Positions 45,101 through 48,100 of a DNA stretch of 64,000 nt are shown here, in pieces; within the stretch, counting starts at the first letter, position 1; each line of letters opens with the position of its first letter. The DNA comes from Escherichia coli (GTDB lineage: Bacteria; Pseudomonadota; Gammaproteobacteria; Enterobacterales; Enterobacteriaceae). The DNA is taken from the NCBI RefSeq assembly GCF_003018255.1, contig NZ_CP027440.1; one strand, written 5' to 3'. The position numbers were made by a program.

Positions 45101-48100
45101 GTATGCATGCTGGGTGGGGAAAGTATGAAGGAAAAGAAGACTGCCGCGCCGTTTGTCGTCACATTTATCTTCATTGGCTATGCAAGTCGTAATACAAGGT
45201 GGGACAAAACAGAGACACATAAGGTCTCACAAAGGTCTGCAAGGCCTCACATGTATTGAGATGTTAATAAAATGTAGACTTGTAATTTGGATATAAATGG
45301 TAGAGAAAACCTTTCCCCAAAATAAAAACGAACGTCAATGAAATCAAACGGTTGAATAAAGTTGATTTTGGCTAATAAAAAGACAATAAAATAATTTTTA
45401 TCATTAAATATCAATGAATTGAACTTAATGTTTTTATATACTGTTACGCCATATGGGCTGGACTGAAGCCGCAGACCTGATTGTTAAAGGTATGGAAGGC
45501 GCAATCAACGCCAAGACTGTAACCTATGACTTCGAACGTCTGATGGAAGGCGCTAAACTGCTGAAATGCAGCGAGTTTGGTGATGCGATCATCAAGAACA
45601 TGTAATCTCTACATGTGTTAAATATTGAAACGGGCGTATAACACGCCCGTTGTTTTATTTATGTGGATATTATTAATAGCATGTCGAGCATATTTATATG
45701 AAGCCCATTACTTGAGTCCATATGGGCATATTTTTATAATACAACTATTATGCAAACATTTATTTGGTATTTCGCTTTCTCCAGGAGGACACTCTTGACT
45801 GCTTTTGAGTAAACTCCATAAATCCTTGTTAAATGGTGCGATGTTATAAATAGTAATAGGGTATTCTTTATCCTTAAGGATAATACCAGACTTAACCGGT
45901 GTAAATATACTTCCAGGAGGGAGAAATATAGTAGATTGATACCAGATGATCATTTTCATATCACCCCATATGGCTGAAAAAGATATGCCGCATGTAGGTT
46001 GAATTAACGTGTCAATTACTATCCACTTCATTTGTTATGTCTTATCCCACGGTATTTAATATAGTTCATTAGGATGTTCATTTCTTGATTTTGCATATGA
46101 GTATATTATCCCCTCAAAAATATTAATTAAAAATTAAAACCGTTGCCTATATAAAACAAAATTTAAAGCAAGAAATCTCAATAGATATTAAACAAAATGA
46201 TATTTAGTGAAAACAATAAATTATTCACTTCGTTTTAGATTTGTTTAGCTATAATGTTATACATTCAAATGACTGAACATCATGTAATTAAAACATAGCC
46301 TTTATGCTACTTTGTGCCAATTTGCTAAATATTATGGTTGCATTTTTATATAACGATAATAATGAATATAAGCATGACATGAGAATAAGGTTTCAATTTT
46401 TGAGTTATATAGGAATGGTTAAACCCGTTCCTGACTAAAATACATATAATCGGATGATGACTAAACCAAAACACATGTGCGTTAAGTATTGAAACGGGCG
46501 TATGGCACGCCCGTTGGTTTTATAAATATGTTAACCGTTATAAAATAACGTATAGAAAGTCAAGTGATCACATTTCAAATATCAAGTTGATAGTATTGGC
46601 CTGGTGATTATTTATGGGTGGCAATAAAAAGACAGTATTTATCATCCATAGGGATAGTCTCTGCACTTTTATTTCCATTATGCTAATGTCTTACTGAATT
46701 ATGAAGCATTTTTTAAGCATCCAACTTTAGCTAGATTAATGGTTTATTATTTTCTACATCTTCAATATATAAAAGCGTATTATCAATGGCGTAGTAACTG
46801 CGTTTGTTATGATTAACATCAGTAACCCACCGGAAAACGCCCGCGTCTGCCAGTGTTGAACAGTACTCCCGAAATGTAGATTTTCCGGAAATATGAAGCA
46901 ATGCGGCCTCTTTTATTTTAGCAGGGTTCTTTTTCGTACTAACTTTTAACAGGTTCCTGGTTCCTCTTAATAACAAAACCGTGTCATCGTGAGTAATAAT
47001 TCTGATGTTATCCGTAGCCAGATAATAAATGTAATGTGCAACACGGTGATGTTTTAATTCTGAATAAAACCAGGAGAAGTTTTGCTCTTTTCTCACTTGC
47101 TCAAACATCTTTTGAAAAACAACGACCTGATCCATCAGGATAATAACCTCTTGTTAGTTGTGAGACTGCGTAGTGTGCACGATCGGTTTTACCACTTCAA
47201 TCTGGTCTGTCCTTTGGCTGTGATATGTACAAAGTGTGAAAGGGGGATTACCTGAATTCTCCCGGTGAGCATTTTGCAACGGACCAGCTCCGGTACAAAA
47301 GCTGTTGTGGGTTCAGATTATAAGATTCTGTCTAAGGGGCGGGATAAAGGTGAAATTAGGGGGCATGAAAGATGACTTTATAACCTTGCTCACCCCAGTG
47401 TTGTAAAAGTTCGTTTTGCCTTCTCGTTGGTGCCATGCCTGTCCAGACAATCAATGTTTGCGTCGGGAACAGTTCCGGGCGCGGCGATTCAATGGGATCA
47501 GCAAGAACAGAAATGTGCCATCCTGACAATGATAAACGCCATGCTTCCAGCCACAATCGTGCTCTCTCTTCAACATTCCACGCCATCAGAATGGCTTCTT
47601 TACCGGGCTTACGGCGCATTTCGAAAAGTGAGGCTGCTGCGTATTCAATTAATGCGCCGTCAAACATACTGCTCATAATGCGGGAGGTGTTGTGATCAAG
47701 CACGAGACGCTGGCGAACAGGAAGGTAAACATGATTAATCAATTGATCTACTGGGTACTCTCGACCCAGTGAAATAATTCTCGCGCGTAGTTTGGCAGGA
47801 TTAGCCATACGAAGAATTGACATCATCTCTTCTTGCAGGCGACTCCAGTCATCTTCCGTATCCTGGCTGGTGGTTTCCAGTAATGCTTTAACTTTGCCTA
47901 CAGGAACGCCATTACTTATCCAACGCTTGATCTCTTCGATGCGTTGTATGTCTTCTTCATCAAAGAGTCGGTGTCCGCCTTCACTGCGCTGTGGTTTTAA
48001 CAAACCGTAGCGGCGTTGCCAGGCCCGGAGAGTGACAGGATTAATCCCGCAACGTTCAGCAACATCACCAATGCTGTAATAAGCCACAATTCCTCCTTGC

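Follow-up and report, generated by a model that had tools for sequence, protein, structure and literature searches.

How did iraM, whose PhoP-controlled product stabilises the stress sigma factor RpoS, come to lie between two copies of one terminator hairpin just beyond a prophage in icd? The window, a 64,000-nucleotide stretch of Escherichia coli DNA (contig NZ_CP027440.1 of assembly GCF_003018255.1), is occupied up to about position 45440 by a lambdoid prophage. Beyond it follow, in order, a fragment of icd, the first terminator copy (T1), iraM, an AT-rich region with ymgK, the second copy (T2), ymgL, ycgX, bluR and bluF. This region is 100% identical to strain JNE23-011, whose annotation was used. 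A first-pass annotation took the arrangement for the footprint of an earlier integration at the icd hotspot, a reading that gains support from the terminators carried in phage attP and attL sites and from an icd remnant at the T2 position of another lineage, both described below. On these comparisons, T2 is likely the fossil attR of an ancient prophage integrated in icd, with iraM as its surviving cargo. The gene would then probably be the last remaining cargo gene of an icd prophage much older than those of the e14 type.

The present-day prophage illustrates the process. Its junction with icd lies at about 45442, and the adjoining icd 3′ fragment (45438..45605, plus strand) is an icdC-type pseudogene that aligns with the end of intact icd and is recorded in JNE23-011 as an incomplete isocitrate dehydrogenase. 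This fragment is the host-side arm of attR of the resident lambdoid prophage. The element e14 likewise integrates within icd and supplies a replacement 3′ end (Hill, Gray and Brody 1989, as cited in bioRxiv 10.64898/2026.06.14.732165). The same source describes how the host's own 3′ end, once displaced, persists as a pseudogene at the distal e14 border, giving the icd/icdC pair of K-12, and how recombination between the icd and icdC copies removes e14 (bioRxiv 10.64898/2026.06.14.732165). The locus studied here would resemble e14 in its integration inside icd with a phage-supplied 3′ end, in the displaced 3′ end at the distal border and in the removal of the element when the two copies recombine. 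Unlike e14, the interval between T1 and T2 is only 0.8 kb, has no integrase, and is flanked in the window by a duplicated unit that consists of the terminator alone. The putative fossil site, moreover, stands just past the resident prophage's own attR, an arrangement that would place two attR generations side by side.

T1 (45611-45658, plus strand, 48 nt) and T2 (46473-46523, plus strand, 51 nt) are identical in 45 of 51 aligned columns (88.2% gapped; BLAST within the window, E = 2.5e-11), and the ungapped match spans 43 nt at 88%. The hairpin repeated on both sides of iraM had been noticed in the first-pass annotation; both copies were found again, and the roughly six mismatches it counted are three substitutions and three gap positions. 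The starts it gave, 45611 and 46473, stand, and its ends do not: similarity stops at ...TTTTAT, at 45658 and 46523, and not at 45665 and 46530. The T1 hairpin (45629-45651) consists of a 9-bp stem and the loop ATAAC, is followed by GTTTTAT, and has a folding energy of about -18 kcal/mol (z = -3.5). That of T2 (46493-46515) has the same 9-bp stem around the loop ATGGC. The copies differ at no stem position: all changes are in the loop (AA in T1, GG in T2) or beyond the stem, and their similarity reaches 18 nt leftward from the stem and rightward into the T run. A 29-nt core pattern occurs exactly twice in the 64 kb, with zero occurrences expected (100 shuffles).

Both copies carry the G+C-rich stem-loop and T run that mark intrinsic (Rho-independent) terminators. 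They are terminator-like on the plus strand; the stems fold stably on both strands, and the minus-strand tail TTTCAATA is weaker than the plus-strand T run. None of the 18 stem positions is changed, as against 6 of about 33 others, numbers too small for a test. That the stems were kept and the changes all lie elsewhere fits ongoing use as terminators. With both hairpins intact, T1 is predicted plausibly to serve the convergent pair icd and, in the opposite direction, iraM. T2 lies downstream of the ymgL-ycgX transcription unit, and plausibly ends its transcripts while insulating the iraM promoter region.

The hairpin belongs to icd well beyond E. coli. Its stem, allowed any loop, was sought in one genome from each of 100,044 species and was found at 42 loci, never more than once per genome. 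In E. albertii, E. whittamii, Escherichia sp. E1V33 and three Citrobacter species it comes straight after the stop codon of icd, each time with an ATAAC loop and the same sequence on its 5′ side; the other matches are unrelated hairpins. By sequence and position it is the icd terminator in other Escherichia and in Citrobacter. Within E. coli genomes the sequence is confined to icd, to the ends of prophages within icd and to the T2 position, at no more than three places per genome.

Phages that use icd carry this terminator as well. In the complete genome of phage 21, attP comprises an icd-like pseudogene (the last 53 codons), the terminator, the arm sites P1P2P3 and int. The terminator is the same hairpin with the ATAAC loop, and it ends in GTTGTTTTAT, as T1 does; phage 21 is, however, an intact and active phage, and T1 adjoins iraM in place of the arm sites and int. 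The resident prophage of strain 124 shows icd, the same terminator in attL, and then int. At least 25 phage records match the terminator. The e14-like elements bring a different one. Three kinds of junction were found among IMG/VR prophage ends: attL, attR followed by iraM, and attR followed directly by the ymgL flank.

Between the copies lie 814 bp (45659-46472) with 29.5% G+C, compared with 47% for the window. The first-pass annotation had described about 810 bp of AT-rich DNA carrying only iraM; to this an annotated 14-codon ORF, ymgK (46288-46332), has to be added. The anti-adaptor gene iraM (45708..46031, minus strand) was identified by NCBIfam NF007393, phrog_4407 and the JNE23-011 annotation. 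It is preceded by an AT-rich upstream, regulatory region (46032..46472, minus strand) of 441 bp and 25.9% G+C, within which ymgK lies. No integrase, excisionase or structural phage gene occurs between T1 and T2, only iraM and ymgK, so the segment is a remnant and not a prophage.

The protein itself points to phages. IraM matches NCBIfam NF007393 over its full length (170 bits, cut-off 121) and the phage family phrog_4407 at E = 8.5e-51. A Pfam scan of the allele in the window gave no match at E <= 0.01; IraM homologues carry the pre-existing annotation PF11183 (PmrD-like). PmrD is another PhoP-induced connector protein, which binds a response regulator. Relatives 55-69% identical to IraM all lie in lambdoid prophages, including Stx2 prophages, between stx2B or lpxR and nanS-p. 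Together with phrog_4407, their position as lambdoid-prophage cargo supports the earlier suggestion that iraM itself arrived as cargo. The prophage gene is convergent with stx2B or stands beside lpxR, upstream of nanS-p (locus L049, 4001-4324; loci L051-L056), and a few records annotate it as iraM. Chromosomal iraM and its Stx2-phage homologue are alike only in their coding sequence (72% nucleotide identity), with unrelated flanks, and the phage records contained no chromosomal-type iraM, none of its flanks and no copy of its upstream region. The extant cargo genes of this family sit in the prophage late region and not beside attR.

A further relative, IraL of uropathogenic E. coli, is 58.9% identical to IraM, and strain CFT073 lacks iraM and has this paralogue, according to PMC4045071. 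IraL and the IraM-like genes of Stx2 and other lambdoid prophages belong to the same family as IraM and all reside in horizontally acquired DNA; unlike iraM, they sit in a phage late region or in the potB island, among unrelated flanks. The same paper places iraM "on the e14 prophage" (PMC4045071). In strain 33F4, iraM lies beside an intact icd with no prophage, and therefore is not part of e14-type elements. The gene lies outside the e14-type attR and persists with intact icd and no prophage, which corrects the published placement.

A comparison of the presence and absence of iraM and of the repeat, proposed in the first-pass annotation, was run on 5,426 complete E. coli genomes and yielded a clean iraM-less allele with a single terminator. 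The full T1-iraM-T2 structure is present in 3,842 genomes. About 1,420, including Nissle 1917, ATCC 11775 and NC101, have icd or an icd fragment, one terminator, ymgL and ycgX, and no iraM; 19 carry a divergent third allele type. The single-terminator allele offers a concrete structural explanation for the absence of iraM from about a quarter of E. coli genomes. Alignment with the Nissle allele shows that the right flank (46524..46730, minus strand), which includes ymgL (46568-46678, JNE23-011 annotation), is common to iraM-carrying and iraM-less alleles. Next to it lies ycgX (46731..47135, minus strand; DUF1398, Pfam PF07166, phrog_413), a conserved neighbour and convergent with icd.

The terminators differ in how much they vary. 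T1 always ends in GTTGTTTTAT, like the phage 21-type copies, and the run before AT is one position longer in T2, and likewise in the lone terminator found where iraM is missing. Across strains, the 5′ flank of T1 occurs in at least 14 distinct variants, while T2 is nearly invariant; its GG loop is essentially fixed among E. coli carriers, with a single-base loop variant in one strain. None of the 5,426 genomes has the GG loop next to icd, and none has a T1/T2 hybrid adjoining icd, which was sought as a sign of conversion or recurrent deletion. The single terminator of strain E302 (locus L113, 2520-2575) has the left flank TGTGTTAAAAACGGTAACGGG, like the copies of e14-like elements in Citrobacter. 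This flank and the variable flanks of T1, set against the invariant T2, suggest that the icd-proximal terminator has repeatedly been exchanged with phage copies.

The single terminator of the iraM-less allele combines features of both copies. Its left markers are those of T1 (no CG insertion, A in place of G, AA loop), it has the T-run length and flank of T2, and it carries A where T2 and the orthologue of the divergent lineage have G. The allele looks like a T1/T2 recombinant, and from these markers it is reasonably likely to reflect secondary loss and not a site that was never occupied. Loss is the simpler reading because the single terminator is recombinant-like and because iraM was already present at this place outside E. 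coli proper.

The latter point, and the origin of T2, come from the 19 divergent genomes. These have diverged by about 5% in nudJ-rluE and by 3.6% in icd, segments in which E. coli strains are at most 2% apart. Their locus reads icd, terminator, an e14-like attL arm, a 455-aa ORF, trkG, iraM′, a YmgB-family gene, the upstream region and then ycgX-bluR-bluF in conserved order. With the arm, the 455-aa ORF and trkG, this lineage retains more of the remnant than the window does. The gene iraM′, in the corresponding position, has 79% nucleotide identity to iraM, and no protein is closer to chromosomal IraM than its product. Positions 46060-46420 of the window are 71% identical to its upstream region. 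The extra gene of the YmgB/AriR family between iraM′ and the upstream region (locus L110, 9581-9841; locus L122, 4360-4587) is missing from E. coli proper.

An orthologue of T2 (T2′) is present in 17 of the 19 genomes, with the flanks of T2 on both its left (...CCAAAAC) and its right. Immediately before it stands ATCAAGAATATGTTAA, which corresponds to the final icd codons, stop codon included, with one inserted T, so that 15 nt of icd coding sequence and a stop codon survive upstream of it (locus L122). T2′ is collinear with the icd end, terminator and flank of Nissle over 179 nt (E = 2.8e-21), and the TTAAG marker is common to T2′ and T2. A 15-nt icd match at this exact position is not chance. 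The coding end and stop codon before T2′ imply that T2 descends from a duplicated icd 3′ end, and such a duplicated end at attR is the product of integration into icd. The window lacks about 210 bp of the T2′ form, between ...CCAAAAC and ACATGTG, and no icd remnant is found upstream of T2 in the window (a score as good arises in 1,328 of 2,000 shuffles); for an icd origin of T2 the evidence is therefore the orthologue in the other lineage. Further upstream of T2′ (locus L122), a decayed icd or att-core gives two competing weak alignments, with p about 0.009 and 0.037, on which the argument does not draw. Part of the interval upstream of T2′ resembles a fragment of an IS3 transposase.

The following history would account for these observations. 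The ancestor of E. coli and the divergent lineage would have taken up a temperate phage similar to e14 or phage 21 at an att site inside icd. The phage-borne icd 3′ end and terminator would have ended up beside icd, and the resident icd 3′ end, terminator and right flank would have been displaced to the opposite prophage end, forming attR there. Decay of the prophage may then have left, in E. coli proper, only a cargo module of its right end, iraM with the AT-rich regulatory DNA upstream of it. Another 0.2 kb or so would then have been deleted, taking the degenerate icd piece and leaving the terminator alone as T2. T1, being within the zone of homology to present-day icd phages, would have undergone continual exchange, while T2, outside that zone, would have stayed frozen. 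The iraM-less allele seen in B2-type strains most likely arose when T1 and T2, or longer forms ancestral to them, recombined; the phylogroup was read from a few strain names and not from a tree. The resident prophage has AT-rich cargo ORFs at its right end (43115-44972), just before attR, among them a 209-aa ORF (43115-43744) and a DUF3800 protein (44238-44972). The proposal puts iraM at this same place in the ancient prophage.

The strongest competitor, itself improbable, replaces the old prophage by a Campbell-type insertion at the terminator. In that scheme a small or gene-losing circle, with a diverged homologue T* beside iraM, would have crossed over within the right arm of the stem (CACGCCCGTTG) by means of an integrase or RecA. 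T2 would be element-borne, and the iraM-less site would never have been occupied. One such step explains the markers of the single terminator and all diagnostic positions without extra mutations: T1 would combine the resident left part with a 4-T run and the iraM flank, and T2 the CG, G and GG markers on its left with the resident 5-nt T run and flank. The iraM-less site is also clean, and the 5,426 genomes hold no T1/T2 hybrids. However, T2′ with its icd coding sequence and stop codon, sharing TTAAG with T2, is what a displaced icd 3′ end predicts. The occurrence of iraM at this place outside E. coli proper makes the iraM-less allele more simply a loss, and searches of phage, viral and genome collections found no element bearing T*.

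A phage-free duplication of the terminator by slippage or unequal exchange, with separate capture of iraM, is less probable still. The duplication in the window covers no more than about 50 bp and there is no recombinase gene, as such a local event would have it. Two independent events at one spot would nonetheless be needed, the icd coding remnant at T2′ and the phage family of the cargo would be left unexplained, and icd phages routinely make exactly this duplication. That T2 is an unrelated terminator or a dispersed REP-like copy, resembling T1 by chance or convergence, is scarcely credible: short G+C-rich hairpins with similar stems do arise in unrelated bacteria, yet the two copies here remain similar for 18 nt on the left side of the stem and, on the right, into the T run, no shuffle match is expected, the hairpin occurs once per genome elsewhere, and the E. 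coli copies are restricted to icd and the T2 position.

Two further classes of element were considered and rejected. REP or BIME-type extragenic repeats occur as many copies at unrelated loci in one genome. The first-pass annotation had named a widespread REP-type element as the finding that would undo its reading; the window, the species scan, the IMG/VR prophages and the E. coli genomes gave no such element, since two copies in the 64-kb window and one per genome elsewhere rule it out. A transposon target-site duplication is a short, exact repeat of 2-14 bp, accompanied by terminal inverted repeats and a transposase. The repeat here measures 48-51 nt and is imperfect, the ends of the insert have no terminal inverted repeats, and there is no transposase.

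The reading as a fossil attR also agrees with what prophage att-site duplications leave behind: a repeat derived from the icd 3′ end, with its coding part only in the orthologue, carriage of that repeat by phages, and an allele with a single copy. A related class comprises tRNA-linked islands and grounded prophages, in which imperfect direct repeats from the 3′ end of the target enclose AT-rich foreign cargo and other strains carry an empty-site allele. The iraM locus is like them in its target-3′-end repeats around AT-rich cargo and in the empty-site allele of other strains. It is unlike them in that the target is the end of a protein-coding gene with its terminator and in that the mobility genes are all gone.

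Taken as a fossil attR, T2 could serve as a marker for dating integrations at the icd locus, and the region downstream of icd would be a graveyard of successive phage integrations. The locus would be a tidy case of phage-gene domestication, a known kind of genome scar that does not overturn current understanding. A fossil attachment-site duplication will hardly surprise specialists in phage integration; what it refines is the origin of a well-studied regulator. A broader synthesis is offered tentatively, as a possibility less likely than not. T2 would be a fossil of the icd terminator from before or at the first phage invasion, the working terminator (T1 or the B2 single copy) would continually have been overwritten from the phage pool, and iraM would be a precisely deletable cassette whose loss in B2/G rewired the low-magnesium RpoS stability response in extraintestinal pathogens. 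B2/G lineages often carry the paralogue iraL in its place.

Outgroups fit acquisition of iraM and do not date it. In one Citrobacter sp., the only outgroup with icd-ycgX synteny, icd is convergent with ycgX and there is no iraM, which implies that the gene was gained at some point after that split. Attempts to read the outgroup state from YcgX or BluR homologues were discarded: in E. albertii the homologue belongs to prophage cargo, the copy of Escherichia sp. E10V10 lies elsewhere in the chromosome, and the blu module of C. freundii occupies another locus. Introgression was likewise set aside as the cause of the divergence gradient to the right of T2 (85%, 93%, 97%), which neutral non-coding divergence and linkage to an old indel explain equally well. 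Relatives of ycgX at 70-77% identity (locus L100, 5001-5405; locus L103, 5001-5405) include a cargo gene of an E. albertii prophage, flanked by lysis and terminase genes, and another that adjoins yedEF in a further Escherichia species. Beside icd, ycgX may itself be a phage relic of still greater age.

Structural instability at the locus goes further than its three main alleles. In ATCC 43886 (locus L004, 2762-3587) iraM is truncated by IS1 and the DNA up to pdeG is missing, and some O157 genomes match only icd and its terminator. In strain STO_Bone2 (locus L112, 1895-1915) the T1 loop is inverted, GTTAT for ATAAC, with the stem unchanged, which looks like a hairpin-loop flip. The base of the terminator is a recurrent IS200 target: in one strain lacking iraM, IS200C lies directly behind the T run of the icd terminator, in one carrying iraM it lies behind that of T2, and an IS200 remnant follows the unrelated icd terminator of a Citrobacter sp. 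(loci L111, 2790-2800 and 3490-3505; L112, 2785-2795; L106, about 6150, minus strand).
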